This document shows positions 23,419 to 60,185 of a stretch of DNA of 64,000 bases, piece by piece. The notes below the pieces were generated by a model. The model was not told where the DNA came from, made no database searches, and saw nothing but the letters and a program-made list of their open reading frames with translations. Location of the stretch: the IMG/VR virus record IMGVR_UViG_2724678985_000012; one strand, 5' to 3'. The stretch is from a virus (lineage: Duplodnaviria; Heunggongvirae; Uroviricota; Caudoviricetes). The position numbers were made by a program, and so were the translations under genes. Numbering within the stretch: position 1 is the first letter of the stretch; the number at the start of each line of letters is the position of its first letter.

Positions 23419-23422
23419 AATT

Positions 23423-23803: not shown

Positions 23804-23900
23804 AATGCACAGGCTGATGTGCCGCAACTACAGTAGTGCGCGCTTTGCGGGGCTTGCTACAACCCTGTGTCGGAGTTCAGCACCGACCATCACAATCACT

Positions 23901-23987: not shown

Positions 23988-24250
23988 GTGCAACGTTAAG
24001 AGTATTTGGCTAATTAAGCGAATGCCGGAAGCAGAACCGGATCACCAAATGCGTACAGGCGTCATCGCCGCCCAGCCAGCCAAGTGCTCTTACCATTGCG
24101 GTGAATGCGGCTAAGCGCACGCGGAACAGTTAAAACAATCCTCCTTAGTGGTTAAGTCAAACATCCCGGCGTTAATTGTTAACTGGTTAACGTCACCTGG
24201 AGGCACCAGGCACCGCAGCTTTTTTATTCGGTAAATAATGGAGTGAGAGG

Positions 24251-25294: not shown

Positions 25295-25448
25295 CCAAAT
25301 AGATAACATGATGGAATTTTGGACGTTTGCCGACAAGAACCCTTGGTGGACATTTTTATTTCTGCTGGTGGTTGCATATGGGGTCGAGCAAGCAGCAAAA
25401 GCCTTACGCGGTCCTGGCAAAAAGCGTAAGCGGAATTAACAGTAATCT

Positions 25449-25524
25449 GGCCCTTTAGCTCAGTGGTTAGAGCTGGCGACTCATAATCGCACGGTCACCG
25501 GTTCAAGTCCGGTAGGGGCCACCA
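25449..25524 (+). tRNA. tRNA-Ile2 (anticodon CAU, ileX-like; Met not excluded)
   Basis: 76 nt; near-identical architecture to E. coli ileX; anticodon loop CTCATAA; CCA. Confidence 0.75.
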
Positions 25525-26961: not shown

Positions 26962-26980
26962 ATTAATTTTCTAATATAAT
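26962..26980 (+). promoter_or_regulatory. C1-operator-like motif site 7 (variant TTTTCTAATATAAT)
   Basis: upstream of Lpa-like gene, as P1 lpa is C1-controlled. Confidence 0.4.
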
Positions 26981-27054: not shown

Positions 27055-27447
27055 ATGGAACAAATCAGCAGCGCAGAAATTGCGGATATCATGATCAGGG
27101 CTGACTGCTATCTGACAGTCACTGAAATTACCACTCTCGCCAAAGAAAAATACCCTCATCTCCATGTTTCACGAGTAAGTGTAACTAACATCATTCGTCA
27201 TTTTGTTCGTTCAAGCAGGGCAATCTGTGAGCTGGATGATCGTGTGTATCCACGAAAATACTGGCTACATGGTCTGAACGGATATCAGTTCAAGGTGCGC
27301 GGGCGCACGCCTGAATACGGTAGCTTACTGGTTAAAAACTGTAGCAGGAAATCAGTCGAACAGGCGCGAAAAGAGCAACGAGAGCTGGTGGACATGGCGA
27401 ATAAGCTGTGGAATGCCGCCGTTAAAAAGCGTGGTGTTGCTTTATGA
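27055..27447 (+). CDS. putative late-promoter activator (Lpa-like) by synteny
   Basis: 130 aa, immediately upstream of pacA-like gene; operator-like motif in its promoter region. Confidence 0.3.
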   Translation: MEQISSAEIADIMIRADCYLTVTEITTLAKEKYPHLHVSRVSVTNIIRHFVRSSRAICELDDRVYPRKYWLHGLNGYQFKVRGRTPEYGSLLVKNCSRKSVEQARKEQRELVDMANKLWNAAVKKRGVAL

Positions 27448-28808: not shown

Positions 28809-30316
28809 TGGCTGGCGGGCGCAAGATTAAATGCGTCACCAGCGATCCACGCTGGCGCGATATGGTAATCAAATACCGCTACAACTTTACCCAGGCTGTT
28901 GTCGATATTTTTGGGATGTTCCCCTCCCACCAGCAGCAGCAGATCATTCAGTCAGTGCAGGAAACGGGGAGTAGGACGACCGTCACGTCCGGACACGGAA
29001 CGGGGAAGTCGTCCCTTACCGCGATGTTGCTGTTGATTTTTATGATCCTGTTCCCCGATGCCCGTGTCATCATTGTTGCTAACAAGATAGGCCAGGTAAA
29101 AACAGGCGTATTCAAATACGTTAAACAGTATTGGGCGAATGCAGTTAAGCGTCATGGGTGGTTGCAGACCTATTTTGTCCTCTCTGACACCATGTTTTAT
29201 GAGCGCTCCCGTAAGGGGATTTGGGAAGTTCTCTGCAAAGGTTATCGACTCGGCAACGAAGAAGCGCTGGCGGGGGAACACGCGGCACATTTGCTTCTAA
29301 TTCTGGACGAAGCATCTGGTATATCTGATAAGGCGATCGGCGTAATGACCGGTGCTCTTACTGAAGAAGATAACCGGATGTTGATGCTATCCCAGCCAAC
29401 AAGGCCAAGTGGTTATTTCTACGATTCGCACCATTCTCAAGCAAAAACCCCAGACAACCCGAAAGGGATCTGGACAGCAATTGTTCTTAACTCGGAAGAA
29501 TCACCGTTCGTCACACCACAATTCATCAAGCAGAAGCTTCTGGAATATGGCGGGCGCGATTCTATTGAGTACATGGTCAAGGTGCTTGGTCAGTTCCCAC
29601 GAGAAATTAACGGCTATTTGCTTGGTCGTGATGAATGCGATCGCGCTGCTCGCCGCAAGGTGTTGTTGGAGAAAAACTGGGGATGGGTGGCAACGGCTGA
29701 CGTTGGTAATGGGCGAGATAAGTCGGTCCTCAACATCTGCAAAGTATCTGGTCACAGGGATAAGCGGCGCGTTGTTAACTTTAAGGTAATGGAGATGCCT
29801 GGCACTATGGACCCATTGGCCTTTGCTGACTTCATATATAACGAATGTACGCCGGAAAAATACCCGAATATAACAATCGCGGTTGATGCTGATGGTTTTG
29901 GTTCTGATACGTGTGCGCAGTTGGTGCGTCGTGGTGCGAACCCGGTACGTATTCGGTGGGGAAAACCCATGTTTGCGAACAAAGACAGGGAGCGATTTGT
30001 TAATCAGCGTGCCTACGCAAATATTATGGCGCGAGATGCCATAAAGTCAGGGCGTATGCGGATAGACAGTGACCCTAAAACGGCAGAGCAAGCGTCAAAA
30101 ATCCCCTTTTTACTGAATGAAGAAGGGAAAATGGCGATGATGCGCAAAGAGCACATGCGGCAAAAGCTAAACATCAAATCGCCTGACCGATGGGATACCT
30201 ACTGCTTCACTATGCTGGTGGACTATGTGCCTGCTAATGAAGATATTGGTGCCGAAATGGCAACTTTCCGAGATCAGGTTCTGGCGGATATCGAAATGCC
30301 GGATCTGGATATATAA
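28808..30316 (+). CDS. pacB: terminase large subunit PacB-like
   Basis: 502 aa; Walker A SGHGTGKSS and Walker B LLLILDEASG. Confidence 0.75.
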   Translation: MAGGRKIKCVTSDPRWRDMVIKYRYNFTQAVVDIFGMFPSHQQQQIIQSVQETGSRTTVTSGHGTGKSSLTAMLLLIFMILFPDARVIIVANKIGQVKTGVFKYVKQYWANAVKRHGWLQTYFVLSDTMFYERSRKGIWEVLCKGYRLGNEEALAGEHAAHLLLILDEASGISDKAIGVMTGALTEEDNRMLMLSQPTRPSGYFYDSHHSQAKTPDNPKGIWTAIVLNSEESPFVTPQFIKQKLLEYGGRDSIEYMVKVLGQFPREINGYLLGRDECDRAARRKVLLEKNWGWVATADVGNGRDKSVLNICKVSGHRDKRRVVNFKVMEMPGTMDPLAFADFIYNECTPEKYPNITIAVDADGFGSDTCAQLVRRGANPVRIRWGKPMFANKDRERFVNQRAYANIMARDAIKSGRMRIDSDPKTAEQASKIPFLLNEEGKMAMMRKEHMRQKLNIKSPDRWDTYCFTMLVDYVPANEDIGAEMATFRDQVLADIEMPDLDI

Positions 30317-31394: not shown

Positions 31395-31413
31395 TTTAGT
31401 TTTCTAACATAAA
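31395..31413 (+). promoter_or_regulatory. C1-operator-like motif site 8
   Basis: GATTTAGTTTTCTAACATAAAAT immediately upstream of 30344-31381 start. Confidence 0.5.
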
Positions 31414-36569: not shown

Positions 36570-36946
36570 TTAAATAACCGGACAATCATCAAACTCCCCA
36601 CTTCGGGCATCATTGATGACATGAGTGATCACACCAAAAACAGCATTACTTCCCGTGCATCCATCGTCATCTACTGGTAACGCCTCTTTCTTCCCGGTGC
36701 TTAAATCCTCCAGGTGCTGGCGCGGATACTTCCTGTATCTCTTTATGCGATATTCACCCTCCATAGCGCACACAAGCAGCGAACCATCAACTGGAGTAAG
36801 CGAAGAATCAACCACCAGCATATTCCCTCACGGTGATGGCTATCAGCTGCCCGCATGAAGTAGGTTGCTGATGGATGCCTGATTAGTTGCTGATCAAGAG
36901 AAATTCGGCTTTCAACATAATCCGCCGCAGGAGAAGGGAAGCCCAT
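36570..36946 (-). pseudogene. humD: humD (UmuD-prime homolog) with apparent frameshift
   Basis: N-terminal MGFPSPAADYVE...YFMRAADSHHREGI in one frame, C-terminal LVVDSS...FGVITHV in another; 2 nt where 3n expected. Confidence 0.6.
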
Positions 36947-37215: not shown

Positions 37216-37500
37216 TTAACTCCTACATTCAGGGCAAGAGTTCCCTTCCGCAAAATAGGGGAAACTGCTATCAAGCTCATCACACCATCTGCGATGGTCG
37301 TAGCACCAAAACGCCTCCCACGGTACACGGAAATACTTCATCCACCAGGACACTCGATCAGGTATATCTGCTGGTGGCAGCTCTTCTGGCAATAATTTGC
37401 CTGATAATTCCCTTTCCGCCCGCGCCAGCATTCCTTTTAGACTCGCATTTTCTTTTTCAAGAATCTCTACGCGAGCCTGTAACTCAGCTTTCGTTGGCAT
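37216..37500 (-). CDS. hypothetical protein
   Basis: about 94 aa from MPTKAELQARVEILEKEN; coiled coil then Cys-rich tail. Confidence 0.3.
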   Translation of the reverse strand: MPTKAELQARVEILEKENASLKGMLARAERELSGKLLPEELPPADIPDRVSWWMKYFRVPWEAFWCYDHRRWCDELDSSFPYFAEGNSCPECRS

Positions 37501-38251
37501 GGCCCGCCTCATGTTTATCAGCCACCAGCGGCAATAAAGCCTTAGCCATTTCATGAACCAACATGGCATCAATGACGCCTAGCGTATGGCCCGGCTTAAT
37601 CTTTAATGCGGCCTCAAGATAGCCTCTTTCCAGAGTGGTTTTTACGCTTTTCCTAGGCGCTTGTTGGGAACCATCCGGAAGAACCGGATGGTTCCCAGCC
37701 TCATAAGCTACCCGCAACCAGTGCATGAATGTTTCCGCAGACACACAACCGCAGTCCACATCGATTTCCCCGCGTTGCTGCTCCAGCCATTGCTCAAAAT
37801 CTAACTTGTAAGCCTTACTTTCAGACTTGACTTTCTGAGACGCTATGCGAGCTGCTTCATACTGTTCACGAGTGACAACCGATGTAAACGCACTGCGATC
37901 AAGGTCACTGATATCGCAAATAATGCCATCAATGGAATAATTCTTTGATGATTGGTAATTTTTATGGCGCGTACCAAAAAGAACCGTAGCGCGACTACTA
38001 CCTGGCATCGTAATGGATAGATGGCAAAAATCTTTTCCATCAGGCCATCCATGCCCCTTAGATAATTCCTTCACTAACAAGTCAATCAGTGTCATAGCTT
38101 TACCATCCTTGCAAGGCGCTAAAGCTATTTTGGCAAGTTCCAATACTTCATCTGCTGTGTATCCAGCACCGTGACCATACATTTCGATACGGGAAATAAT
38201 ATCTGAAATACGCTCTTTAGTGATTCTTGTCATAGTTTTATTTCCTTGCAT
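37484..38251 (-). CDS. hypothetical protein
   Basis: 255 aa ORF. Confidence 0.4.
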   Translation of the reverse strand: MQGNKTMTRITKERISDIISRIEMYGHGAGYTADEVLELAKIALAPCKDGKAMTLIDLLVKELSKGHGWPDGKDFCHLSITMPGSSRATVLFGTRHKNYQSSKNYSIDGIICDISDLDRSAFTSVVTREQYEAARIASQKVKSESKAYKLDFEQWLEQQRGEIDVDCGCVSAETFMHWLRVAYEAGNHPVLPDGSQQAPRKSVKTTLERGYLEAALKIKPGHTLGVIDAMLVHEMAKALLPLVADKHEAGHANES

Positions 38252-38439
38252 GGTTCGCCTTTACGGCAAACAGCTACACGGTCATTTCTTACATTAACCA
38301 CAGTCACCGTTCCGTCATCGCATTGAATAACGATGAAAGGGTGTTCATTCTCTTTTGTGCAATGTTGCTGTTCCCCTGCTGTAACAGTGAGGGGAATTAA
38401 TAAAATAATAATTACTGCGAATTTACTAAATGTTGCCAT
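38230..38439 (-). CDS. small secreted Cys-containing protein
   Basis: 69 aa; N-terminal signal-peptide-like segment. Confidence 0.35.
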   Translation of the reverse strand: MATFSKFAVIIILLIPLTVTAGEQQHCTKENEHPFIVIQCDDGTVTVVNVRNDRVAVCRKGEPCKEIKL

Positions 38440-38463
38440 AGCAATCTTTCTTTCTGTTTTTCA

Positions 38464-38757
38464 TTATGGTTGAATCCAGTTATCTTCAATAGCAATGCTT
38501 AATCTTTGTAACCATTCTGCTAATTTCAGCATTGCTTCTCTTTCGCTTAAACCACACGGAAAATCATCAAGCGATATTGTTGGCTTGAAGTTTCCTAAAT
38601 TATCCATTTCGACGGTCAGATTTTGCTCCAGCACGGTATTTCTTACGCGGCTATTGTGCCGAAGCAAATATACTGAACGTGATTTATTGGTTTTGTGGTC
38701 GAAAGTATATTCGGTAAGTATCATCTGGCTTCCGCCATGATTATTACCGCGCCACAT
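38464..38757 (-). CDS. hypothetical protein
   Basis: 97 aa ORF. Confidence 0.35.
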   Translation of the reverse strand: MWRGNNHGGSQMILTEYTFDHKTNKSRSVYLLRHNSRVRNTVLEQNLTVEMDNLGNFKPTISLDDFPCGLSEREAMLKLAEWLQRLSIAIEDNWIQP

Positions 38758-38780
38758 AATTACTCCGTGTTAATTGAAAT

Positions 38781-39062
38781 TTAGCTATTAATCTTCACTT
38801 TTATCGCGAACACCTTTACCGGTTTATCACCGAAGTGCGGATGTGTGATTGTTTTTATTTCATATCCGTTATACGGGACGTCAATTCTGCGACTGAAGTC
38901 TTCGCGCTTCGGATATCCCTTTGTGATAATCAGGCGGTCATACTTACGGTTAACGAGGCGCTTATTCCAGTAGTCATTACACAGGCGATACTCTTCCGTT
39001 TTCTCCCCTCGAATCATGGCATCGAAGTATTCACCTTTAACGGCAAGTTGCAGGTTAGCCAT
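38781..39062 (-). CDS. ASCH-domain protein
   Basis: about 93 aa from MANLQLAVKGEYFDAMIRGEKTEEYRL; ASCH-like signature. Confidence 0.45.
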   Translation of the reverse strand: MANLQLAVKGEYFDAMIRGEKTEEYRLCNDYWNKRLVNRKYDRLIITKGYPKREDFSRRIDVPYNGYEIKTITHPHFGDKPVKVFAIKVKINS

Positions 39063-39322
39063 TACCTCACCTCCAGTCTCCATACCGCCTGACCAATCCG
39101 GCTGGCATGGGTATCTTTGGATACTGTTCCGTCTTTAGCCAGCTCCATAAGAATTTTGCGCAAATCTGCCGAACGCCATTCTTCATCAGGAAATTCCTTC
39201 TCCATTGCCAACCGCAGATTCCAGGTTGCCATCCTGAATGGATATTCCCCGCCGAGAGCTTTATCTTGCAGGGCAGCCCGGGAACGCATCACCTGCAAAA
39301 CCTTCTCTTTTACATCCATCAT
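39062..39322 (-). CDS. hypothetical protein
   Basis: 86 aa ORF. Confidence 0.35.
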   Translation of the reverse strand: MMDVKEKVLQVMRSRAALQDKALGGEYPFRMATWNLRLAMEKEFPDEEWRSADLRKILMELAKDGTVSKDTHASRIGQAVWRLEVR

Positions 39323-39894
39323 TTCGCCTCCTGCGGCGGTTCCGGTAGCGGCATCCAGTGAGTTGCTTGCTCAATACCATTACCCGGCTTAATCGTTGCA
39401 TCTCCGCGCCGAAAGGTGCTTCCGGTATAGCGTGCGGAGCATATTAGCGGTTCAACCAGAGAGCTATCGAAATTCACCGAAATAAGCACGTTCTGGTTCT
39501 TTTCAGGCATCCGCTCACTACAGCTTATCCAACCATCCGGAGTTACCGGCACTGGCTGGGCGGTGTAAAGTGGAACAACTCGCCCTCCCCATTGCTTAAC
39601 ACTACTCTCAGCGAACACTAAATGCTCAGTCCGATAATACCCAGGGGCATCAATATCTTTTCTTTCGCTATCCCACATGTAAACCACCGGTTCTGCTTCC
39701 AGTGATGCCAGTGCAATTCGTGCCAGCTCACGCACAACTTCAGGGGGCGCGTAACGGTCATTCAGGTCATCCCACAGGCGTAGCATGTTATCGCTACCAG
39801 GGTGAACATCCTCGTTAGTTCCGGCAAGCGCACTAATAACCTCATCGGCTGCTTCAATAATTTTCTGTGCCTGTTCTCTGGTAATAGTGGTCAT
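39319..39894 (-). CDS. DUF551-domain protein
   Basis: 191 aa; C-terminal ...HWMPLPEPP motif. Confidence 0.45.
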   Translation of the reverse strand: MTTITREQAQKIIEAADEVISALAGTNEDVHPGSDNMLRLWDDLNDRYAPPEVVRELARIALASLEAEPVVYMWDSERKDIDAPGYYRTEHLVFAESSVKQWGGRVVPLYTAQPVPVTPDGWISCSERMPEKNQNVLISVNFDSSLVEPLICSARYTGSTFRRGDATIKPGNGIEQATHWMPLPEPPQEAK

Positions 39895-40172
39895 TTGTTA
39901 ATCCTTAAAACTTTATGCCCTGGCGCAAAAGCACGTGTTTTGTCTTTGCTTATTCGCCAGCCATCCTTACGTGCCTCTTTTGCACAGCCAGCCCATGACG
40001 TACCGATATATTCACCGAAGTCTGGTACTGGATATACACCTTCCGTACACTGGCGGCAGTCACAATAGAGATGCATGGTGTAACTTGCGGCAATAGCCAT
40101 ATCACTCTCCTTTAGTACGCAAGTGGTTTTTCCAGCGGTTTTGCGCCGCGCTGGGCTTTTTGCAAAAACCAC
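39891..40172 (-). CDS. small Cys-rich protein
   Basis: 93-aa ORF; likely starts at internal MAIAASYTMHLYCDCRQC. Confidence 0.3.
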   Translation of the reverse strand: MVFAKSPARRKTAGKTTCVLKESDMAIAASYTMHLYCDCRQCTEGVYPVPDFGEYIGTSWAGCAKEARKDGWRISKDKTRAFAPGHKVLRINK

Positions 40173-40276
40173 AATCCATCATCCCGTAATATTTCATCAA
40201 CCCCATCCGTCGGTTGCTGAGTCTCACCCACTGCCAGACGCTAGGGGCGTTTCTACGAACTAACAGAATCTTTGCT

Positions 40277-40843
40277 TTACGGTTTTTCATCGTTTTGCTC
40301 TCCTGCGTCTCCTTTGATGCAAATGCCAGCGACGCGTGGCACATTAACTTCCACGATGCGCACAGTTGGTTTGTACATCTCAATCGCTGTCAGCCAGTCA
40401 GCGCCGGTCATATGCTTTTCTGCATCGCCATTAGTCCATTGAACCGGCACACCAATAGCTTTCATCGCAATTTCTATTTCCCCGGCGATGGCGCTTTTTC
40501 CGCAACCAGTAAAACCAGAAACAACGACAAGAACTTCGCCTTTGGCTGGTTTTATTTCCCGTGCTTCCAGTTCTGCAATGCGCTTCTCTGCGGCTTCCAG
40601 CTCAACACGCAGCTTCCCTACCGTTAGCGCAATTTCCTCGTTCTCCTGGTCGCGGCGTTTGATGTATTGCTGGTTTCTTTCCCGTTCATCCAACAATGCC
40701 AGCGCGATATCTGGCGAAAAGTGCTTCATAAAATCGTTAAGCGCATTAATTCGCTGATCGAAAGGCATTACAGGTGCTTCACCAGCAATTTTTGTTTTTT
40801 CAGCGATTTCACGAAGTTTTTGATAGTCAATTTTGTTTGTCAT
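40277..40843 (-). CDS. Ead/Ea22-like protein with P-loop-like C-terminal segment
   Basis: 188 aa; N-terminal MTNKIDYQKLREIAEK, coiled coil, VVVSGFTGCGKS. Confidence 0.35.
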   Translation of the reverse strand: MTNKIDYQKLREIAEKTKIAGEAPVMPFDQRINALNDFMKHFSPDIALALLDERERNQQYIKRRDQENEEIALTVGKLRVELEAAEKRIAELEAREIKPAKGEVLVVVSGFTGCGKSAIAGEIEIAMKAIGVPVQWTNGDAEKHMTGADWLTAIEMYKPTVRIVEVNVPRVAGICIKGDAGEQNDEKP

Positions 40844-41718
40844 ACCACTACCTCTTCGAATTTCAACTCCAATTGGTCACCCCAGATTTCACATGATTCG
40901 GAACACGAACCAGTATCAAACCGCTTGGCCTGCACCATCGCCTGATACAAATTTCTGTAGTCGCTGTCGGCATACATTCTGGCAATCCCGTCAAGCGTCA
41001 GGTGACCACGGTACATAACGTCTTTACCTGTTCTGCGATGACCATCCCTGACGTGTTTGCCTGTAACCAGTTCATTAAAAACCCGCATCAGACCAGGTTC
41101 GTCTTTACATGCAAGCCCCAGCTTTTGCGTTGACTTTTTGATGCAAAAAACACAGTTCCCGAGGTGCTCCGGGATTTGCAAATCAAAAGGTTGTTTTCGC
41201 CACCACCGAATAACATCCGACTTATCAAAATCTGACAGTTCTGCAAGATACCGGACGCCCGGTTTCGGTTTCAGCCTACGGTGTTCGTCCGCACGAATAC
41301 CCAGCCATGTGATGTAATTCCCTCGCCCAAAATGGTCATCGCAATATTTCGTGAAAGGGGTGAGTTTTAGCCTGTCAGTACAGAACGCGCCGCCGATGTA
41401 AGGCGTACCGTACTTTTTAACCATGTCCATAAACGGTTTAAGCACCGGCATTCGCGTCTGAATATCCTTTGGTTCCCATTCCGTATAACCATTTGGCTGC
41501 CCAAGTTCTGGATTTATATCGACCTGCAACACCGTTAGCGGTACGTTCCAGAACTTCACAACCTCACGAATAAAGCGATACGTCAGAGGATGTTCACAGC
41601 CGGTATCCATAAAAATGAAATGGACGCTAGCGCCAGCTTTTCGCTGTGCTTCCATCAGATGAACGAGATAAGCCGATGTTCGTCCACCTGAAAAGCTGAC
41701 AACTTGATGCATACTCAC
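40840..41718 (-). CDS. PAPS-reductase-family PP-loop ATP pyrophosphatase
   Basis: 292 aa; N-terminal VVSFSGGRTSAYLVHLM PP-loop motif. Confidence 0.65.
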   Translation of the reverse strand: MSMHQVVSFSGGRTSAYLVHLMEAQRKAGASVHFIFMDTGCEHPLTYRFIREVVKFWNVPLTVLQVDINPELGQPNGYTEWEPKDIQTRMPVLKPFMDMVKKYGTPYIGGAFCTDRLKLTPFTKYCDDHFGRGNYITWLGIRADEHRRLKPKPGVRYLAELSDFDKSDVIRWWRKQPFDLQIPEHLGNCVFCIKKSTQKLGLACKDEPGLMRVFNELVTGKHVRDGHRRTGKDVMYRGHLTLDGIARMYADSDYRNLYQAMVQAKRFDTGSCSESCEIWGDQLELKFEEVVV

Positions 41719-41721
41719 GGT

Positions 41722-42387
41722 TTATTCCTGAACGCGCTTAAACTCGATTACCCATACCCACGGGTTAGATAGCCAGTTATCCTGCCCGTAAATACTGCGC
41801 CAGATATCACCAAAACCAACGCGATAAACAGCTTCCGGCGGCGTAATTTTGTACATCGCCGGAGATGCGCCTTCTGCTTTAGCATCTGCCTCGCTCATAT
41901 CACGCAGCCGTTCCACACGCACGTCGGTAATTTCCAGCAAAATACGCGAAGCCCAGCGCGGCATGTGAATTGATGGACGCCACCCGCCATCAAACTTTTC
42001 ATTCACAGTGTGAGGTTTCCAGTCGACATCATCGGGTATCGACCACAAACCGTAATCACCAGGCTTTTGCTCACAACTGGCCCGATAAATCCTTGCTGCG
42101 TTCTTCTCATCGCCACGACAAAGGTTGTCGTTCCAGTCCACACTGCAACCATCCTCATTGCCTAATATCGCCCACGCCTCACGGACCCATATGCGATCAC
42201 CAACGTTACCGAACGGGCATAAACCATGTTCAGGTGCATCCATAACGTGGGTATAGACACCATTGCGTTTCTTTGTCGGTTTACGGATAACTAGGCAGTT
42301 ATCGGCCCTGACATTTTTTACAGGTCGGCGAGTCTGCGTCTTCCTTCCTTCGAGGATGGCCCTGACCATCTCATCGTTAAAAATCAT
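41722..42387 (-). CDS. phage protein with ASCH-like N-terminus
   Basis: from MIFNDEMVRAILEGRKTQTRR; family common in lambdoid prophages. Confidence 0.4.
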   Translation of the reverse strand: MIFNDEMVRAILEGRKTQTRRPVKNVRADNCLVIRKPTKKRNGVYTHVMDAPEHGLCPFGNVGDRIWVREAWAILGNEDGCSVDWNDNLCRGDEKNAARIYRASCEQKPGDYGLWSIPDDVDWKPHTVNEKFDGGWRPSIHMPRWASRILLEITDVRVERLRDMSEADAKAEGASPAMYKITPPEAVYRVGFGDIWRSIYGQDNWLSNPWVWVIEFKRVQE

Positions 42388-42418
42388 CCCGCGTTCTTTC
42401 ATTTTTTGATCCACCTCA

Positions 42419-43414
42419 TCAGTTATTGAACGTGATCACTCCGCGCTCGATGGCGAAGTCAAAAAGCTGGTTAGCGGCTACGTAAAGGCGTATGCCATGT
42501 GCTTTTTCCCATGCCCGAACATCGTTTTCTGCGCTTCTGGCGCAGTCATCGCAAAGAGGAACAGCCCAGCGGTCGTGTTCGTTTAACGAGCGGGCGCGGT
42601 ACATGAACGGGTGGTTAACTTTGCCACCGCATCCGATGCACGGACGAGAAACCACAAACCGGAGATAAGCCGGGCTTTTACCGAGGACCGCTTTTGGTCG
42701 GCGCATATAAAGCAGGCCGGAATCCTCATCTACAGACAGGTTGACGATCTGCTCTGCGGTTATGTCCACCAGCTCGCGGGTACTGTGCTCCCAGGTGATA
42801 TCTGATTCTTTCAGCGTACCGGTAGGGATTTCAGTTTTTGGCTGACAAAATGCAATGCGACCAGCTTCATCAGGCAGTTCGTCTTTAAGATTCCGGCGAA
42901 TGGCCCAAAAGGTGAGTTCAACCATGCTCAGATCGCGATCCGGCGGAAGTTTTAACTCGCTGGCAGCCCAGTTCATAATCCAGTTGGCGCGATTCCGTGA
43001 CAGTTGGTCTTCCAGCTTGCCGTATCCCTTCATCATGTATTCCGCATCATGCTTCCAGCACAGGCGAACGGCAGAACCGTTATAGAAATGGGTGGTTAGC
43101 TGGTGGCTGCAATCGCGCTTATCATGCGCCTGGCAATCGTGAATGTTGGTGCTAACCCAGTGAACGAGAGAATCCTCACCACCTAACGCGTTAAATACAC
43201 GCTCACTTTGAAAAAAGGGTGCCAGTGACTGGTTGGCAACCAGTGAATAATTCAGGTCAACGACACCATCAGGGGTGTTTTCAGCCTGTTCACGCGGCAA
43301 TGGGGATATAAGAAAACGGCGTCCTGCGCCGATGTAATTGCTGGTGGGCTTATCTACAGGAAAGACAGCCACACCAGTTTCATTTACGACATATGGGGTG
43401 ATTATTGCACTCAT
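42419..43414 (-). CDS. DUF968-like protein with C-terminal Cys/His nuclease-like motif
   Basis: 331 aa; C-terminal CIGCGG...HPFMYR...CDDC. Confidence 0.45.
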   Translation of the reverse strand: MSAIITPYVVNETGVAVFPVDKPTSNYIGAGRRFLISPLPREQAENTPDGVVDLNYSLVANQSLAPFFQSERVFNALGGEDSLVHWVSTNIHDCQAHDKRDCSHQLTTHFYNGSAVRLCWKHDAEYMMKGYGKLEDQLSRNRANWIMNWAASELKLPPDRDLSMVELTFWAIRRNLKDELPDEAGRIAFCQPKTEIPTGTLKESDITWEHSTRELVDITAEQIVNLSVDEDSGLLYMRRPKAVLGKSPAYLRFVVSRPCIGCGGKVNHPFMYRARSLNEHDRWAVPLCDDCARSAENDVRAWEKAHGIRLYVAANQLFDFAIERGVITFNN

Positions 43415-43454
43415 AATGCATACCGACTCTGTTTTGTTCCGATCGGTAAAATAA

Positions 43455-43471
43455 TATGTTAGAAAACTAAA
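43455..43471 (-). promoter_or_regulatory. C1-operator-like motif site 10 (inverted pair with 43478-43487)
   Basis: ATGTTAGAAAACTAAAATCAATGTTCTAACG. Confidence 0.5.
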
Positions 43472-43512
43472 ATCAATGTTCTAACGTGATTTTGAGTGCG
43501 TAAATGATTTGA

Positions 43513-44205
43513 TCAGACTTTAAGCTGCCCTCCCTTCACCTGCATTAGCGTCAGATTTCCGCAAAAAACCGCGCCCGTGTCTATGTAGTGCTGATTCCAG
43601 TATGCTTTTGGTCTTCGTACCGGTGTGTGCCCAAAGATAAAGCGATCTGCGCCTGTGATTTCTCCACCAATGCCATCTATCGAATCACCGACGCGACTGC
43701 GCGACCAGACAACATCAAAAAGCGACACATCCTTACCGAACTGGTACTCTCCACCTGGATAGTCGGCATGGGCTATAACGATAGTTTCATGCCCGGCGTT
43801 CAACTCAATGATATATGGCAGACGCTTTACCAGCTCCACCAGCGCCTTGGCTAATATTTCCTGATCAGTGTCCAGCATGAAGAACCATTGTCCGCCATTC
43901 ATTAGCCAGTTATTCACGTTGCCATCAGGACTTAACGCATCAAGCATCAACCGCTCATGGTTCCCCATTACTGCCCTGAACCAGGGCATCTGCAATAGTT
44001 CCAGACATTCGACATTTTCAGTACCGCGATCGATAAGGTCGCCAACCGATATCAGTAAATCCTGCGCCGGGTCAAAATCCACACGATGGAGTTCGGACAT
44101 CAGTCTGGTGTAGCAACCATGCAGATCACCAACAACCCATATGTTTCTATAGCCAGAACCATCAATACGGCTATATAAATTCACTTCATGCAGAGCCTGG
44201 GTCAT
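43513..44205 (-). CDS. Ser/Thr protein phosphatase, PPP family (lambda PPase-like)
   Basis: 230 aa; GDLHG, GDLIDRG, GNHE motifs. Confidence 0.85.
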
Positions 44206-44513
44206 GCGGCAACCTTCTCACGCAGCCAGATACAAACCGGACCATCTTCAGTGTCATGAATAGAGCCAACAAACCAGCCTTCACCCTCTGGTCGCTCCGG
44301 TTCCCAGGCGGCAATATCGGGACCAGCTGCGTCCAGATCAAAATCATCTTCATCCATACTGCGAATAGTCCACTGAAGATTATTTTCCTTCATCCAGGCG
44401 TCAAATTCCTCAGTGGAAATATATTCACGACCTGCGCAAAACTTCTCATACTCCGGATGTGTCCAGCAGCCATATTCATCACGTTCTACCGGCATTTCTT
44501 TAATGATGCTCAC
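44202..44513 (-). CDS. hypothetical protein
   Basis: 103 aa ORF, 4-nt overlap with neighbours. Confidence 0.4.
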
Positions 44514-44734
44514 TCTTCATCCTCCAAGTCGGCAACGGCCTCCATCACATCAGAACCGCGAATAACCTCAAAAGCACGGCAGGCCATTTCAAACACCTGT
44601 TGTTCTTGCGGATGCGGTGACTCCCAATACTTAAAACCAGGTCGATGCTCGTAACCCATCATGGAATAAAAATCGCCAGCAAGTTCAATCGCGGCATCAA
44701 CAAGTTCGCGATTTGTCATCGTCTGTTCTGTCAT
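44510..44734 (-). CDS. hypothetical protein
   Basis: 74 aa ORF. Confidence 0.35.
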   Translation of the reverse strand: MTEQTMTNRELVDAAIELAGDFYSMMGYEHRPGFKYWESPHPQEQQVFEMACRAFEVIRGSDVMEAVADLEDEE

Positions 44735-45006
44735 TTGGTTTTCTCCTGTCTGAACATCACTATCATCAGGTCGCCTTTTGTCGCTATTCTGGCTGTTGTG
44801 CCTGGTTCAATGCGGCTAAGCTCAAATGCGTCATAGAACGCTTCTAATGCCTTCTGGCGTAGTTCCTGTTTGCGCCGTTTTTTCCACTCTTTTAGGAAAA
44901 TGGAACCCAGCCATCGCCAGGTACGGGACATGATGTAAAGCCAACCGAAAAGTGCCAGACCGGTATTTAGGGCCGTATCGATTGTTATCGTGGTGTCGAT
45001 ATTCAC
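44731..45006 (-). CDS. small membrane protein
   Basis: 91 aa; N-terminal TM helix, basic stretch. Confidence 0.35.
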   Translation of the reverse strand: MNIDTTITIDTALNTGLALFGWLYIMSRTWRWLGSIFLKEWKKRRKQELRQKALEAFYDAFELSRIEPGTTARIATKGDLMIVMFRQEKTK

Positions 45007-45251
45007 TGTGGTGGCTCCTGCTTTTCTGCCTTCAATACCATGCGAGAACCATCATCCAGCTCCCAATTAATTTCACCGCCTTCAGCCATGACTAGATGCC
45101 AAACGAGTTGTGCGGCCTCGTTGGTTACATCACGACCGCGATCATTGCCGACACGACGTTTTGTTCCATCCCCTAAGTCACGCATTTTTGCCAACACGAT
45201 GGTTTTTGATAGCGGTGAAAAACCAAGCTGTAGTCGTGCGGAATTACTCAC
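45003..45251 (-). CDS. hypothetical protein
   Basis: 82 aa ORF. Confidence 0.35.
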   Translation of the reverse strand: MSNSARLQLGFSPLSKTIVLAKMRDLGDGTKRRVGNDRGRDVTNEAAQLVWHLVMAEGGEINWELDDGSRMVLKAEKQEPPQ

Positions 45252-46012
45252 TGTTTGCCTCCTTTTCCAAGCTGGGCGGCGATATCTTCGAGAACGCCAT
45301 CAGAGAATGAGCGGTCAAAATCGCCTTCCGGCGCATTAGCCATAAACTCAGTAGAGGTAAGAATCATCCGGGCAATATCCGCGGCGTTCTTCGCAGTATC
45401 ATCAATAAAACCAGCTTCCCAGGCAGCCAGCATTCTGTTCGCCACAAAGTAAGCGCCCTCCTTGCGTGCTTCAGTCTTCACTTCAGCCAGGAAAGCATCG
45501 GTGGCTGGTGTTTGCGGCATCCCTCCATCTGTTGCGCAGATATACGCATCAGATATTTCATCCTGCTCGCCATCAAACACGTAGCAACTCTGTGCGATGA
45601 ATTTATTCAGCCCCGCATTCTCCGCCGCCAGCGCCGCGCGATTACCCTCCAGCTCTGCAATGCGCTGTTTTGCGGTATCAAGTTCAATCGATAATTTTTC
45701 CAACTGCTCTTTATGCTTCTTGTATTCCTGATATGCGTGCCAGGACTGACCTTTGCGCACACTATCAGTAATATCAGTAATCTGTTCTGGTGTTAGCGTA
45801 GTCAGTGGCTGTGCTGGGAAAATCAGCACTTTCCCGGAATCCCAATCAAAACCAGCGTGAATTGACTGAACCTCAACTGAGGGTGTTGAACCAATGCTGC
45901 CAGGCGAATGAACAACGATCGTTACATCCATATCGCGACGATGGCTGTGGTTGTTGGACAAAATACGATTCACCAACTCAGAAAATTTGGAGAATTTCAT
46001 GCGGAGCCTCAA
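45248..46012 (-). CDS. Ead/Ea22-like protein (paralog A)
   Basis: coiled coil AALAAENAGL then TPATDAFLAEV... domain shared with 46416-46904. Confidence 0.45.
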   Translation of the reverse strand: MRLRMKFSKFSELVNRILSNNHSHRRDMDVTIVVHSPGSIGSTPSVEVQSIHAGFDWDSGKVLIFPAQPLTTLTPEQITDITDSVRKGQSWHAYQEYKKHKEQLEKLSIELDTAKQRIAELEGNRAALAAENAGLNKFIAQSCYVFDGEQDEISDAYICATDGGMPQTPATDAFLAEVKTEARKEGAYFVANRMLAAWEAGFIDDTAKNAADIARMILTSTEFMANAPEGDFDRSFSDGVLEDIAAQLGKGGKQ

Positions 46013-46410
46013 TATGCAAAATAGACCGTTGCCACGCCGTTATAGTGATCAAACGATACGGCGTTTACTTCATAGCTGGCAGGGAGCTTCGAGCCGAGAA
46101 CATATCCGGGCCACGTTTTCCATGGAATTTCTCTACTCTCACTATCCCCATATACCGTACATCCAAGTGAACCTACAGCCTCGTCAGAACGTTTGCCGCA
46201 TGTTATGAAACCTATATTTTTCTTGCCGGTCTTAATGGCGATTGGGTGAACACTGGCTGATGCATTGGCAGCACGCTGTGACTGTTGGTTTGCGATATTC
46301 GCAGAGTTCGCAGCAGCTACAGCAGCCGTGGTCGCGGCGGTAGATGCCACAATAACTGCTGAAGCCTGCGCCTGTTGGGTAATGGTCAGCAATGCCGCCA
46401 CAAAAATCAT
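46009..46410 (-). CDS. small secreted protein
   Basis: signal-peptide-like MIFVAALLTITQQAQASA; start uncertain. Confidence 0.3.
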   Translation of the reverse strand: MIFVAALLTITQQAQASAVIVASTAATTAAVAAANSANIANQQSQRAANASASVHPIAIKTGKKNIGFITCGKRSDEAVGSLGCTVYGDSESREIPWKTWPGYVLGSKLPASYEVNAVSFDHYNGVATVYFAY

Positions 46411-46415
46411 CCTCT

Positions 46416-46904
46416 TCACTTGCCAGCTCCTTTGCGAATCTGTTCCGCCCATTCTTCAAGGGATTTCTCCGCATATTCACCAGACAGGCCATCAATCGGA
46501 TGCGCTTCATTAGCCAACTCTTCTTTCGCTGACAAAATCATGCGTGTAACGTCGAAAACTTCACGCAAAGACTTATTGATAAATCCGTGATTGAACGCAG
46601 CAGCAAGACGGCTTGCGGTATAGTTAATCCCCTCGTTGCGAGCCGCCGCACGAATTTCAGCCAGAAAAGCATCGGTGGCTGGAGTTTCGCTGTGGTGCAG
46701 GGCATCGTTGATAATCATTGCAGCAACTCCGGCCTGCCCTGCATCCGTGACCGACACATGCTCAAGAGTTACAGCCATTGCATGTTTCAGCCCAGCATTC
46801 TCCGCCGCTAGCGCAGCACACGCTTTCTCAAGTCGGGAAATTTCCGTTACATACTCAGCGTTACGCTCTGCCAGTTGTGCGGGCGTTAAACCTTCAGACT
46901 TCAT
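46416..46904 (-). CDS. Ead/Ea22-like protein (paralog B)
   Basis: 162 aa; AALAAENAGLKHA and TPATDAFLAEIRAAARNEG. Confidence 0.45.
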   Translation of the reverse strand: MKSEGLTPAQLAERNAEYVTEISRLEKACAALAAENAGLKHAMAVTLEHVSVTDAGQAGVAAMIINDALHHSETPATDAFLAEIRAAARNEGINYTASRLAAAFNHGFINKSLREVFDVTRMILSAKEELANEAHPIDGLSGEYAEKSLEEWAEQIRKGAGK

Positions 46905-47211
46905 ACACTCTCCTTTCGAAATAAACGTACTGATTAATCATGCCCAGGGGCATTTCGAGTTTTTCCGCGATCTCACGGCGGGGAACACCACACTGATGAA
47001 GCTGCCGTGCCAGTTCTATATCGCTCTGCCGGTATTTGGCTGACGGATGAAAGTCTCCTTTCAGAATCATGCTGATCCCCAACTCCCGCGCTTTAGTCCT
47101 GACGGCATCACCGGTACGACCGATCAGCTTCCCAATACTCTCGACCGTCATAGTTCCGGCGCACTGGCGGAGTATCATGATTTCTGCCCTTCCCCATCCC
47201 CGCCAGCTCAC
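46894..47211 (-). CDS. putative HTH DNA-binding protein
   Basis: 105 aa; two HTH-like segments (ESIGKLIGRTGDAVR, RREIAEKL). Confidence 0.35.
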   Translation of the reverse strand: MSWRGWGRAEIMILRQCAGTMTVESIGKLIGRTGDAVRTKARELGISMILKGDFHPSAKYRQSDIELARQLHQCGVPRREIAEKLEMPLGMINQYVYFERRVYEV

Positions 47212-47819
47212 GCAGAACTCCTTCTAACCAAAAGAACGCCATCTTCAGAAACAACGTTGCAGGACTTCAGGTAATTCATTGCCTCTTTCGGTAATGGATT
47301 CTTTGGATCGGCGTTTGCCAGGGATTTCGATAACCTCATGATAAATTTGATCATTACCTTCTGGCGGAGCTTGTGCTCATGAGATAAAGAAAGGTAATAG
47401 GAAATGGTATGGGCTAAACGCTCACGAAGCTGTTCTGTGCCGTGATATACAGCAGCGATATCACGCAGTGCATTGACCAGTTCCCGGTAAATATGTGGAG
47501 CAACCTGGCATTCAATGTTGGTTGGTGACTCATAAATTACAGTCAGCCCCAGCTTTTCAGCCAGCGCGTGCTCTGCACGAGCACCAACCGATTCTTCCCA
47601 TCGATTGAGCAAATAGATCGCATCAGCAGAACGCACCATTGCCAGGCAAATATCCATGTATTCACTCTGGCAAAGGCCACCAGGTAACACCGCTGGATTC
47701 AGAACGATATGCCCTTCAGCCATCAGCTCGATCGCTTTCGCATTAAACGCCGCACGGTTGTAATCTGGATAACCAGTCATCGGCCCCGCGATGTAAATTT
47801 TCAAAACACGTTTCACCAT
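47208..47819 (-). CDS. DUF4406-like (nucleoside 2-deoxyribosyltransferase-like) protein
   Basis: from MVKRVLKIYIAGPMTGYPDYN...; C-terminal extension. Confidence 0.4.
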   Translation of the reverse strand: MVKRVLKIYIAGPMTGYPDYNRAAFNAKAIELMAEGHIVLNPAVLPGGLCQSEYMDICLAMVRSADAIYLLNRWEESVGARAEHALAEKLGLTVIYESPTNIECQVAPHIYRELVNALRDIAAVYHGTEQLRERLAHTISYYLSLSHEHKLRQKVMIKFIMRLSKSLANADPKNPLPKEAMNYLKSCNVVSEDGVLLVRRSSA

Positions 47820-48010
47820 CAAAATTTCCCCAAAATCGTGACGCAAAACATAAGCACTGCGAAAAGCTCAATACCAAGTTCAAGTAGCGCCAACGCCCCG
47901 AAAAACAACACATAGAACAGGCCAATCTCATTCACAGATGGCTGGTGGATCGCACTTAAAGCTATAAGCATCATGTCCTCCAAACAGTTATCAGGAATGA
48001 TATTAATGTT

Positions 48011-48027
48011 TTGTATTAGAAAATCAA
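48011..48027 (-). promoter_or_regulatory. C1-operator-like motif site 11 (variant)
   Basis: TGTATTAGAAAATCAATTT upstream of ref-like gene. Confidence 0.4.
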
Positions 48028-48091
48028 TTTTGAATATCTAACCATTTTGATCAATCATAGAAAAATCGCTGAAAAGTAAGAGGCTGCCATC

Positions 48092-48682: not shown

Positions 48683-49299
48683 TTAAGTTGAATTGTGAAT
48701 TTCCCCGATGTACATTCACTACCGATTGGTACACCGGTCAACTTTTTGAGACAAACTGTTTAGTTTTTCGTATTATTGCCGCCGCCATACCTATGGCGGT
48801 GCAATATAGGTGGCTGAAAAGCCCCCGTTGACTCACGGTGTTCCAGCCTTTATTGCGCCGCCACCAGACCGTGGAACAGTCGATGGCGGCTCCGAAAGCA
48901 AGGAGTCACTACACTATGAACAACTACAGTCTTTTCCCATCACTCGTCGTCCACCACTCACGCGATAATCTGCATTCTTTACTCGCGCCGGGGGTGTCAA
49001 AATGACTGTTCGCTACCTCAACTTTCAAATCAAGAACATTACTGGCGGTTGCTATGACTGGTTTGTCACTCTCGGAAAAGAAGTGATTACTGGTAAACTG
49101 GATGAAGTGAAAGCTAAAGCAATGGCCTACGCCTGCAAGCAAACCAGGAAGAAATCCGCCAAAGCATAAAATACTGACTGTTGCGCCCTGGCATTATCGT
49201 GGGGTATATTTCTACGGCACCTTAGAAAAACGGGTGCCGGGATTGGAACCCCGGATAATGTCAAAGGCGACACAGACGCCGAAAGCGTCTTTTTTTGTG

Positions 49300-49481
49300 T
49301 CACGCCATCGCACAGCCATACGTAGCGTTTAGCTCAGAGATCAATGGTAGTGCTGGCTGGGCTGCCGAAAGGCAGGCCGGTTCCCTTTGACGCCGGTAGT
49401 TCCAACCCAGTCAGTGCTACCGCCATTGAGATTGGAACCTCACGCGGTAGCTCCTTAACTTAGTCAAAGGAGGCTGCCAAT
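49300..49481 (+). ncRNA. c4-like antisense RNA / icd leader region of immI module 2 (boundaries approximate)
   Basis: follows terminator gacgc-cgaaa-gcgtcTTTTTTT; tRNA-like GTTTAGCTCAG; GGTAGTGCTGGCTGGG pairs with CCCAGTCAGTGCTACC 45 nt downstream. Confidence 0.35.
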
Positions 49482-49697
49482 ATGGCTACTATCCCTACCC
49501 CAACTCATTCTGAATTTATCTGGCGTTTCTATTCCTGCCAAAAACACCTGTATATCTGCGTCATGGCTGCTACCGAAGCAGAGGCGCGCTCATACCTTCC
49601 CGAAGAACCCTGCATTTTTGCTGCTCGCTTCACTCTTGATGCGATGGAGATCCTCAATTACTGGAATCTGCCGATGAACTGCGTGGAGGTGCACTGA
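49482..49697 (+). CDS. icd: Icd-like small protein (immI module 2)
   Basis: 71 aa; paralog of 10184-10408 (shared EFIWRF...QKH...AATE.EARS); stop overlaps ant. Confidence 0.5.
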   Translation: MATIPTPTHSEFIWRFYSCQKHLYICVMAATEAEARSYLPEEPCIFAARFTLDAMEILNYWNLPMNCVEVH

Positions 49698-50638
49698 TGA
49701 ATCTGTCCATCTCTCAAAAAGCGACAATGACCAGTATTGAGATCGCGGAACTGGTGGGAAGTCGTCACTCTGATGTTAAACGCAGCATCGAAAGACTTGT
49801 TGCTAAAGGAGTTATCCAACATACGCCATTGGCTACAGTTGAGAATAATCAATCACTTAGCCCTAATAAATACACAAAAGCCTATTTCTTCGAAGGCGAA
49901 CAAGGCAAGCGCGATAGTATTGTCGTCGTCGCGCAGCTCTCTCCCGAATTCACCGCCCGGCTGGTGGACCGCTGGCGCGAATTGGAGAATGCCCGGGTAC
50001 AGTTAAAATCAAAAGCCGAAATTCTGGCTGAAATGGCGCAAATGCATCTTGAACATGAACGCCGGATCAACGCCGTAAATGCCCAGGTAGCCGAGGTATC
50101 GGCACAAGTGTCCAGGGTCGCTGAAACCGTTGAGCAAATCAAGAAAGGCAATATGCCGGAAGGCTACATTGGCTACCGCCAGCTGGCGGCAAAATGCGGC
50201 CTGACCGAAGCCAAATGTCGCAACCTGGTCAACGCTTACCGGATTCCCACCGATACGCATGAGTTTTTAACTCCCGATGGTTTGCTTGCGCGACGCTCCA
50301 TTGTGGCCCTGGCCCCCTTCCGGAAAGCCTTTAAGCAGGTGATGTCGGAGGCAGAACCACGCAATAAACGCTGGTATCATCCAAAGATGGGGATGTTTCA
50401 GGCAATCAACCATCCTGTGCCTGAAAGCCCAAAGGATAATCTGTCACTACATACCGCCAGAGAGAAGATCAGGACTGGATACGCAACAGTGTGTCGTCGT
50501 TCTTCCTGGCCTGAAGGTATATGGGTGTGGCCCGAAGGTGGATCACGAAAGCACTGGCGCACTATCCGGGATGGGAAAATCCATGCTATTGATTTAGCTC
50601 CAGAGGATGTTGTTGCTACGGACTGGATTGTTAGTTAA
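49697..50638 (+). CDS. ant: antirepressor Ant, copy 2, with fused C-terminal DUF2829-like domain
   Basis: 313 aa; conserved blocks with copy 1; C-terminal ...TDWIVS homologous to separate ORF 11112-11312. Confidence 0.7.
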   Translation: MNLSISQKATMTSIEIAELVGSRHSDVKRSIERLVAKGVIQHTPLATVENNQSLSPNKYTKAYFFEGEQGKRDSIVVVAQLSPEFTARLVDRWRELENARVQLKSKAEILAEMAQMHLEHERRINAVNAQVAEVSAQVSRVAETVEQIKKGNMPEGYIGYRQLAAKCGLTEAKCRNLVNAYRIPTDTHEFLTPDGLLARRSIVALAPFRKAFKQVMSEAEPRNKRWYHPKMGMFQAINHPVPESPKDNLSLHTAREKIRTGYATVCRRSSWPEGIWVWPEGGSRKHWRTIRDGKIHAIDLAPEDVVATDWIVS

Positions 50639-60126: not shown

Positions 60127-60157
60127 AAAATGCACCCATTTGTGTTAGATAATTAAT

Positions 60158-60175
60158 ATGTATTTTCTAACACAA
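60158..60175 (+). promoter_or_regulatory. C1-operator-like motif site 13, embedded in 14-bp inverted repeat
   Basis: CCATTTGTGTTAGA...TCTAACACAAATGG around TATTTTCTAACAC, upstream of rdgC-like gene. Confidence 0.5.
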
Positions 60176-60185
60176 ATGGTGAGAC

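Follow-up and report, generated by a model that had tools for sequence, protein, structure and literature searches.

A mosaic accessory block on a D6-like phage-plasmid

The 64,000-nucleotide stretch of IMG/VR virus record IMGVR_UViG_2724678985_000012 (hereafter the window) carries a run of small minus-strand genes at positions 37216-47983 that is likely to be a mosaic of independent cassettes rather than a pathway. The replicon is a D6-like, P1-family phage-plasmid and not a lambdoid phage, and the 'lambdoid-style' label given to the block by an initial annotation of the DNA fits its cargo (homologues of NinC, NinI/Ppp and Ea22/Ead) but not the replicon itself. For a single gene of the block, encoding a PP-loop protein of the NinC family, there is real support for a part in DNA modification or counter-defence; the function of this gene is the question to which the region points. 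The region as a whole is ordinary: it adds one more set of cassettes to a recombination hotspot already known from this phage-plasmid family, which is common in E. coli and Salmonella, and near-identical versions of the block are already present in public plasmid records.

The open reading frame (ORF) listing of the window held 22 consecutive minus-strand ORFs at 37216-47846, and a 54-residue membrane ORF at 47819-47983 heads the run and brings it to 23 genes, in good agreement with the roughly 20 tightly packed genes described initially. Most neighbours overlap by 4 base pairs (bp) or sit a few bp apart, and there are two real gaps, one of ~100 nucleotides (nt) at 43415-43512 and one of ~100-175 nt at 40173/40101-40276. 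Every ORF matched a PHROG family, with E values of ~1e-28 to 1e-109, which indicates that these are real genes. GC skew was negative across 36-48 kilobases (kb) (-0.08 to -0.16) and positive upstream, and the uniformly negative values are expected of a single leftward transcription unit. Domain annotation with Pfam and PHROG recovered nearly all of the domains that had been called initially and added two, DUF4752 and DUF7446, while Rfam placed no RNA family within the block.

Among phages the closest match was to D6 of Escherichia, which belongs to the P1 family of plasmid prophages, has been propagated on E. coli C600 and covered 48% of the block at 93.5% identity. E. coli and Salmonella plasmids of ~92 kb covered up to 95% of it at 97.7% identity (best CP057047.1), and the complete block was present in none of the phage or plasmid records found. 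The block lies between a phd/doc-humD module on one side and ref on the other, matching the annotated flanks of D6 (phd, doc and humD versus ref, icd and ant), and the flanks of the window were verified by Pfam matches to Fic/Doc, PhdYeFM, RecA_dep_nuc and Rha and by Rfam matches to C4 antisense RNA. The accessory region of D6 (orf88-orf105, between humD/hot and ref) has the same position, strand and flanks, and at 83-98% protein identity it has in common with the window the DUF4406 protein, a 105-residue regulator, one Ead/Ea22-like protein, the DUF4752 protein, two small genes, Ppp, the PdcB-like protein and a further Ead/Ea22-like protein. D6 lacks NinC, both ASCH genes, DUF551, DUF7446 and a 147-residue protein, and instead holds other cassettes, namely a pmgU-like gene, DUF4014 and a gene annotated as carboxylate-amine ligase.

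A BLAST comparison with D6 showed that shared and window-only segments alternate (window-only at 37633-39890, 40836-42416 and 45009-46646), with the junctions located at or near gene boundaries. Parts of the block were found in 966 plasmids and at least 80% of it in eight, and one plasmid with a 99.4%-identical NinC-ASCH segment had a different gene content both downstream of NinC and in the DUF7446-DUF4406 interval. The cassettes recur in the early-left operon of Shiga toxin (Stx) phages, downstream of kil-gam-bet-exo, as well as in the nin region of lambda-like phages, and the Stx phages share Ead/Ea22 and DUF551 genes with the window at ~93% DNA identity. In lambda, NinC/NinI (nin region) and Ea22/Ead (early-left 'ea' region) belong to separate operons, whereas the window mixes them in a single leftward operon that adjoins ref on a P1-family plasmid prophage. 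The region is best read as the hypervariable accessory operon ('moron' operon) of a P1-family phage-plasmid like D6. Its leftward transcription would start in the control region that it has in common with ref, and ~23 small cassettes would have been joined in it by recombination at gene boundaries. These cassettes circulate singly among lambdoid prophages ('ea' and 'nin' regions), P1-like plasmids and other temperate phages, and their genes most likely act one by one and not as a pathway.

The control region and a possible role in host protection

A divergent control region of 108 bp (47984-48091), recognised by reading the sequence, separates the block from ref. The motif GATTTTCTAATACAAA at 48010-48025 of this region is a putative C1 operator of D6 type, and the corresponding 16-bp pattern AATTTTCTAAYACAAA occurred at six sites in the window against 0.14 expected. 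These sites (9821-9836, 26965-26980, 31398-31413, 48010-48025, 60139-60154 and 60161-60176) all seem to lie between genes, ahead of genes of regulatory or early type. One lies upstream of a C4 RNA locus, another upstream of a terminase-type gene pair (27444-30316), and another 17 nt upstream of a 345-residue gene that adjoins a cre-like recombinase gene, while an inverted pair sits directly upstream of an RdgC-family gene (60186-61091, plus strand; PF04381, 5e-102). Several of these positions match those of C1 operators in P1 (c1, immI, lpa and ref), and TCTAAT is common to the motif and the P1 operator. The pattern is probably the operator of the element's own C1-like repressor, distinct from the P1 consensus.

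The best leftward sigma-70 promoter candidate, TTGATT-16 nt-TAATAT, has the operator-like motif filling its spacer, and a GGAGG follows it ahead of the first ATG. This arrangement suggests repressor-controlled early expression of the block, so that the stand-alone NinC, the YqfB-like ASCH protein and the DUF4406 protein would belong to an apparently repressor-controlled accessory operon of a plasmid prophage. Several points weigh against this reading: the P1 C1 operator consensus ATTGCTCTAATAAATTT had no match in the window when up to three mismatches were allowed, a generic promoter scan gave no site at threshold within the control region, and promoter and operator alike were called from sequence patterns. 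The generic scan for promoters and terminators returned fewer promoter-like sites than shuffled sequences did, and nothing convincing at the start or the end of the operon.

The operator-like site also bears on the possibility that the block chiefly serves lysogenic conversion or defence, as an island by which the resident plasmid would protect its host against other phages through superinfection exclusion or abortive infection, and would not promote the infection of the element itself. Three small hydrophobic or signal-like proteins (54, 69 and 147 residues) and the adjoining phd/doc addiction module would suit such a role, as would the variable accessory gene repertoires that one study describes for phage-plasmids (PMC7969092). 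However, PADLOC applied to the ten larger proteins returned no complete system and only isolated weak or partial matches (of SspD/DndC type for NinC), the same cassettes also occur in early lytic operons of lambdoid phages, and the control region of the block carries the repressor-operator-like site just described. A defence island was consequently regarded as improbable, and a mosaic of singly acting cassettes remained the preferred reading.

Co-occurrence of the NinC, ASCH and DUF4406 genes

The initial annotation had drawn attention to the combination of a PP-loop enzyme with ASCH and deoxyribosyltransferase-like proteins as one that occurs in DNA or RNA modification or counter-defence. If the PP-loop, ASCH and DUF4406 proteins worked jointly to make a non-canonical base or nucleotide, whether in the DNA of the phage or in RNA of the host, this would agree with the fact that all three domains are nucleic-acid or nucleotide related. 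The gene for the larger, 230-residue ASCH protein moreover lies 3-7 bp upstream of NinC in the window and in 12 of 13 P1/D6-like loci, and in Stx-type phages its slot is filled by a gene for a protein with an HD domain (PHROG family name: deoxyribonucleoside 5'-monophosphate phosphatase; Pfam YfbR-like match weak and below the cut-off).

A co-occurrence matrix was compiled, in which 22 proteins of the block were scored in 80 viral NinC loci (PP-loop protein at least 92% identical) and in D6. DUF4406 and the small ASCH protein were each encoded in just five of the 80 loci. The 230-residue ASCH gene adjoined NinC only in P1/D6-like loci (12/80 overall, 12/13 of that type), and the remaining locus of that type had NinC without it. 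Upstream of NinC stood the 230-residue ASCH gene in 12 loci, the HD-domain gene in 53 (Stx-phage type), and a gene for another small protein in 13. D6 has DUF4406 without NinC or either ASCH gene, and homologues of the 230-residue ASCH protein are common in other prophages that have no PP-loop gene nearby. Within the P1/D6-like loci NinC was 97-99% identical, while the adjoining ASCH protein ranged from 56 to 99%, and this stable identity of the one against the variable identity of the other points to recombination at the junction and not to co-evolution.

Taken together, the distributions of NinC, ASCH and DUF4406 indicate that their combination is a local accident of a cassette hotspot and not a conserved module, and a joint pathway is very unlikely. 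The functional combination suggested by the initial annotation thus failed the co-occurrence check, while its remark that no complete known pathway is present was borne out. An obligate two-gene module of the 230-residue ASCH protein and NinC was also considered, and was ruled out by the distribution.

Identity of the NinC-family protein

NinC (40840-41718, minus strand; 292 residues) is a PP-loop protein described as like reductases of 3'-phosphoadenosine 5'-phosphosulfate (PAPS), and its initial placement in the PAPS-reductase family was recovered, with PF01507 (PAPS_reduct) matched at E 4.5e-9 and 37 bits against a cut-off of 22.5 and phrog_424 at 6e-92. Over residues 3-287 it is 79.6% identical to gp51 of the lambda-like phage O276, which carries the annotation lambda NinC and has NinB and NinD as its neighbours on either side, and the copies in Stx phages are 92-95% identical to it. 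The protein was found in 561 phage records by tblastn, a search of 1.84 billion representatives gave 815 relatives at E <1e-10, and DNA matching part of the NinC-ASCH segment was present in ~14% of complete E. coli genomes. In an alignment of 46 relatives the PP-loop motif SGGxxS (VSFSGGRTS) was conserved, Cys113, Lys118, Arg142, Asp144, Glu145, Cys189 and Cys276 were invariant, and Cys192 and Cys272 were near-invariant. The AlphaFold model was confident (predicted local distance difference test, pLDDT, 91) and shows the PP-loop ATP-pyrophosphatase fold, while a single-sequence search of the PDB yielded marginal or chance matches only.

The Pfam score above cut-off and the PHROGs category 'moron, auxiliary metabolic gene' would both agree with NinC being an auxiliary metabolic gene, that is, a true CysH-type reductase of PAPS or adenosine 5'-phosphosulfate (APS) that boosts sulfur assimilation during infection. 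Against this, the score with the CysH equivalog model NF002537 (NCBIfam) was 21.9 bits where the cut-off is 154, and just ~160 of the 292 residues, the PP-loop core, superposed, with tRNA-modifying PP-loop enzymes scoring nearly equally; this core is about as similar to APS/PAPS reductases as to TilS and the [4Fe-4S] tRNA thiolases. The conserved C-terminal cysteine pattern of NinC also appears to differ from that of CysH. As the NinC family is furthermore fused to DNA methyltransferases, and a fusion of the same family is implicated in escape from Dnd (see below), a sulfur-assimilation role has very little probability.

Evidence for a possible role of NinC in DNA modification and counter-defence

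Among the long representatives of the NinC family (at least 450 residues), seven of eight are fused to DNA methyltransferases, at either end, and these comprise phage Dam (PF05869) in five cases, a D12-class enzyme (PF02086) in one and an NPPF-motif enzyme in one. In PADLOC, NinC matched SspD (1.4e-13; model positions 2-121 of 277) better than BrxP (1.7e-4) and DndC (4e-4). Moreover, NinC and the PAPS domain of p0018 from Vibrio phage 75E35.1, which is N-terminal in a 479-residue fusion, have 55% identity across 280 residues, and the two share the cysteine motifs GNCVFCIKK and GSCSESCE. The 479-residue PAPS and Dam protein p0018 has been described in a sister phage among the Vibrio crassostreae podoviruses (bioRxiv 10.1101/2021.05.05.442762; Piel et al., Nat Microbiol 2022), and moving p0018 together with p0019 into a sensitive phage led to growth on Dnd+ Vibrio (bioRxiv 10.1101/2021.05.05.442762). 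A 2026 paper in Nucleic Acids Research cites this anti-Dnd result and places phage PAPS reductases in clusters within variable, anti-defence-rich regions (PMC13551039).

The low CysH score together with the SspD match in the separate PADLOC library, the methyltransferase fusions and the homology to p0018 tie NinC to DNA rather than to sulfur assimilation. The link to modification or counter-defence that had been proposed for the block finds support for the PP-loop protein and none for the three-gene combination. NinC would most likely use ATP to adenylate a substrate, and its five cysteines would fit an iron-sulfur (Fe-S) or persulfide site for a sulfur-type transfer on or around DNA. An incoming or induced element would then escape phosphorothioate-dependent (Dnd/Ssp-type) restriction, with either its own DNA modified or the host system subverted. 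DndC, SspD and BrxP resemble NinC in having a PP-loop N-terminal half and conserved cysteines of a kind that would suit an Fe-S site, but the similarity is confined to ~145 residues. As the characterised DNA-acting members of the wider family, these proteins all install phosphorothioate in concert with three partners, namely a cysteine desulfurase, an ATPase and a protein that binds DNA (PMC12707154, PMC12839542), none of which was found among the block proteins.

Other evidence speaks against such a role. The structure search gave no separation of a sulfur-transfer enzyme from other PP-loop chemistries, the likeness to SspD and DndC is limited to the N-terminal half of NinC, and the curated DndC model TIGR03183 was far from its cut-off (18.1 bits versus 290.4). 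Cysteine desulfurase, DndD/SspC ATPase and DndE/SspB partners were all missing from the 23 genes of the block, which was the only part scanned for them. In addition, the Vibrio work moved two genes jointly, with the PAPS domain fused to a methyltransferase, whereas NinC of the window is without a methyltransferase domain and the block is without a p0019-like (DUF6475) neighbour, a homologue of p0019 having been sought there and not found. The Vibrio anti-Dnd activity belongs to the two-gene transfer in Vibrio and not to NinC of the window. By analogy, an anti-Dnd role of NinC alone in E. coli or Salmonella may be put forward tentatively, at somewhat less than an even chance.

A broader proposal would make the whole NinC family, lambda ninC included, a stand-alone PP-loop/Fe-S enzyme directed at DNA. 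It would write a phosphorothioate-type or other sulfur or nitrogen mark on phage DNA, or imitate one, and so allow broad escape from restriction of the Dnd, Ssp and BREX-4 types, with the YqfB-like ASCH protein as a partner for nucleic-acid recognition or editing in P1/D6-like elements. This proposal is unlikely; if true, NinC would be a widespread and unrecognised phage DNA-modification system. The literature searched reports no function for lambda ninC. NinC, the methyltransferase fusions and the Vibrio anti-Dnd protein together lead to a directly testable counter-defence hypothesis, of relevance to the passage of temperate phages and phage-plasmids through phosphorothioate-based barriers.

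The ASCH and DUF4406 proteins

The 230-residue protein upstream of NinC (41722-42414, minus strand) scored 18.3 bits against Pfam ASCH (PF04266), below the cut-off of 21.2. Its structural model is of moderate overall confidence with a better core, and in this predicted structure the protein is a genuine ASCH (PUA-like) fold resembling YqfB, the ASCH-domain N4-acetylcytidine amidohydrolase of E. coli. Unlike YqfB, it has a disordered insertion of ~75 residues (residues 80-155) that bears three of its four cysteines. Within the motif GRKTQTRR, Lys25, Thr28 and Arg29 are invariant; the motif resembles the active-site motif of YqfB, and this likeness makes an enzymatic role possible.

The second ASCH candidate (38781-39083, minus strand; probably 93 residues from Met8; phrog_625, 6e-49) matched Pfam ASCH at E 0.053, with 13 of its 24 homologues matching weakly (E 0.002 at best), and the homologues are named 'ASCH domain-containing' by NCBI. 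A profile of this small family gave nothing significant against the PDB or against the 230-residue family. The two ASCH-like proteins of the initial annotation differ in standing, the larger being assigned by its fold and the smaller being a tentative candidate from weak Pfam matches and NCBI naming. Single-sequence PDB searches with both of them and with the DUF4406 protein returned marginal or chance matches.

Database names have also led to a reading of the block genes as morphogenetic or late, since UniRef calls homologues of the 230-residue ASCH protein 'morphogenetic protein' and the P1 region between ppp and humD bears pmg names (putative morphogenetic function), but this is scarcely credible given that the protein has an ASCH fold and not a virion-protein fold, that no block protein matched a structural-protein family in the Pfam and PHROG scans, and that ppp, pmgP-pmgV and pdcB of P1 are non-essential for plaque formation (PMC10695390), which speaks against the 'morphogenetic' names and fits accessory functions.

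The DUF4406 protein (47208-47819, minus strand; phrog_355, 2e-43) was called correctly at the outset, matching PF14359 at 3e-33 with 114 bits against a cut-off of 22. Its homologues are 203 residues long, which places the start at 47819 and agrees with the end coordinate given earlier. The N-terminal domain is nucleoside 2-deoxyribosyltransferase-like (phrog_355 is so named), the C-terminal ~100 residues form a modular domain, and the family has the invariant motif S77-x-G79-A80-x-x-E83. The protein had no match to the enzyme family PF05014, which one homologue carries, its profile met only 1t1j in the PDB (E 1.2), and a literature search returned nothing on its function.

The remaining genes of the block

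The operon begins with a 54-residue hydrophobic small membrane protein (47819-47983, minus strand, as are all genes below), a homologue of D6 orf88 by the D6 annotation (phrog_8890, 3e-35). Downstream of DUF4406 follows a putative DNA-binding protein or regulator of 105 residues (46894-47211; phrog_323 'transcriptional regulator, D5-like', 7e-28), whose counterpart at the same position in a related plasmid is called 'DNA-binding protein' in RefSeq. The next genes encode an Ead/Ea22-like protein of 162 residues (46416-46904; phrog_614, 7e-57, and phrog_368, 2e-40; D6 homologue annotated ead/Ea22-like), a 147-residue protein with an N-terminal hydrophobic stretch that is a possible signal sequence by hydropathy (46009-46452; phrog_8805, 4e-85), and a second Ead/Ea22-like protein of 254 residues (45248-46012; phrog_368, 2e-66, and phrog_14548, 1.5e-66). 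They are followed by the DUF7446 protein (45003-45251, 82 residues; PF24233, 6e-18), the DUF4752 protein (44731-45006, 91 residues; PF15944, 8e-42) and two small genes of 74 residues (44510-44734) and 103 residues (44202-44513) that match phrog_4132 at 3e-42 and phrog_1372 at 1e-53.

The PPP-family Ser/Thr protein phosphatase (43513-44205, 230 residues) is of the P1 Ppp or lambda NinI type, and its initial assignment was recovered with PF00149 at 4e-16 and with the NinI-like phrog_246 at 1e-108. It scored 278.7 bits (4e-83) with the PrpA/B-type model NF008516, for which the equivalog cut-off is 326, and is 87% identical to its homologue in P1-like loci, Ppp being annotated in P1 records. Next to it lies the gene for a 331-residue DUF968, P1 PdcB-like protein of HNH type (42419-43414; PF06147, 6e-45; phrog_96 'HNH endonuclease', 2e-104), the D6 counterpart of which carries the annotation 'similar to P1 gene pdcB'. 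Here as for the DUF551 protein (39319-39894, 191 residues; PF04448, 2e-22) the domain call made initially was reproduced.

A third Ead/Ea22-like protein of 188 residues (40277-40843; PF13935, 1e-19) is encoded directly downstream of NinC. Of the three proteins that had been described as paralogues, those of 254 and 162 residues are true paralogues (39% identity, E 4e-23), whereas the 188-residue protein shares just a 36-residue stretch, read as coiled coil, with the 254-residue one; all three match phrog_368. Pfam PF13935 was met only by the 188-residue protein (71.6 bits against 27), and the other two had no Pfam match. In the 188-residue protein an N-terminal coiled coil is joined to a C-terminal cargo domain that bears the Walker-A-like GFTGCGKS, and the Ead/Ea22-like proteins are modular, with a common N-terminal coiled coil, swappable C-terminal cargo and a conserved tail (…AAGIRIKGE), as seen at 40277-40843 of the window and in loci L002-L075 downstream of NinC. 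A pairing of the 188-residue protein with NinC as APS kinase and PAPS reductase (APS-kinase match weak, E 0.0018) was rejected, the cargo being present in four of 23 related downstream neighbours and D6 having a gene of the 188-residue type without NinC.

Further downstream lie a small gene whose likely true start gives 69 residues (39891-40172; phrog_926, 2e-36, alignment beginning at residue 25), the DUF551 gene and a gene for an 86-residue protein (39062-39322; phrog_2814, 9e-53), which precedes the small ASCH gene. The four distal genes (37216-38757) encode proteins of 97 residues (38464-38757), of 69 residues with a hydrophobic N-terminus and, from hydropathy, a possible signal sequence (38230-38439), of 255 residues and chimeric (37484-38251), and of 94/118 residues (37216-37572), and their PHROG families are phrog_1258, phrog_20764, phrog_60/924/21459 and phrog_3797. 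The block has three small hydrophobic or signal-like proteins on the minus strand, of 69 (38230-38439), 147 (46009-46452) and 54 residues (47819-47983), which may act at the cell envelope, perhaps in superinfection exclusion. Additional putative factors for host takeover or counter-defence, each most likely independent, would be the ASCH, DUF4406, PdcB-like HNH and Ead/Ea22 proteins as well as the phosphatase, and these cassettes are most likely dispensable for laboratory growth.

Other features of the window

Adjoining the block, humD (UmuD'-like, S24 peptidase; 36570-36946, minus strand) is split over two frames in the window and intact in D6 and a related plasmid, so that the gene is a pseudogene with a frameshift or else the sequence contains an error. 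The hot gene, neighbour of humD in D6, is mostly gone from the window.

Rfam located two C4 antisense RNA genes (10051-10136 and 49340-49427), each upstream of a Rha-type antirepressor-like gene (10408-11115 and 49697-50638), together with a1b1 targets at 9931-9983 and isrK at 49217-49295. The element hence seems to have two immI-like immunity modules ~39 kb apart. Elsewhere on the plus strand, a cluster of five tRNA genes was found at 23250-25524 (Arg-TCT, Tyr-GTA, Thr-TGT, Ser-TGA and Met-CAT), and a single ORF of 2278 residues extends over 11982-18818, a size similar to that of P1 DarB, an antirestriction methyltransferase-helicase.

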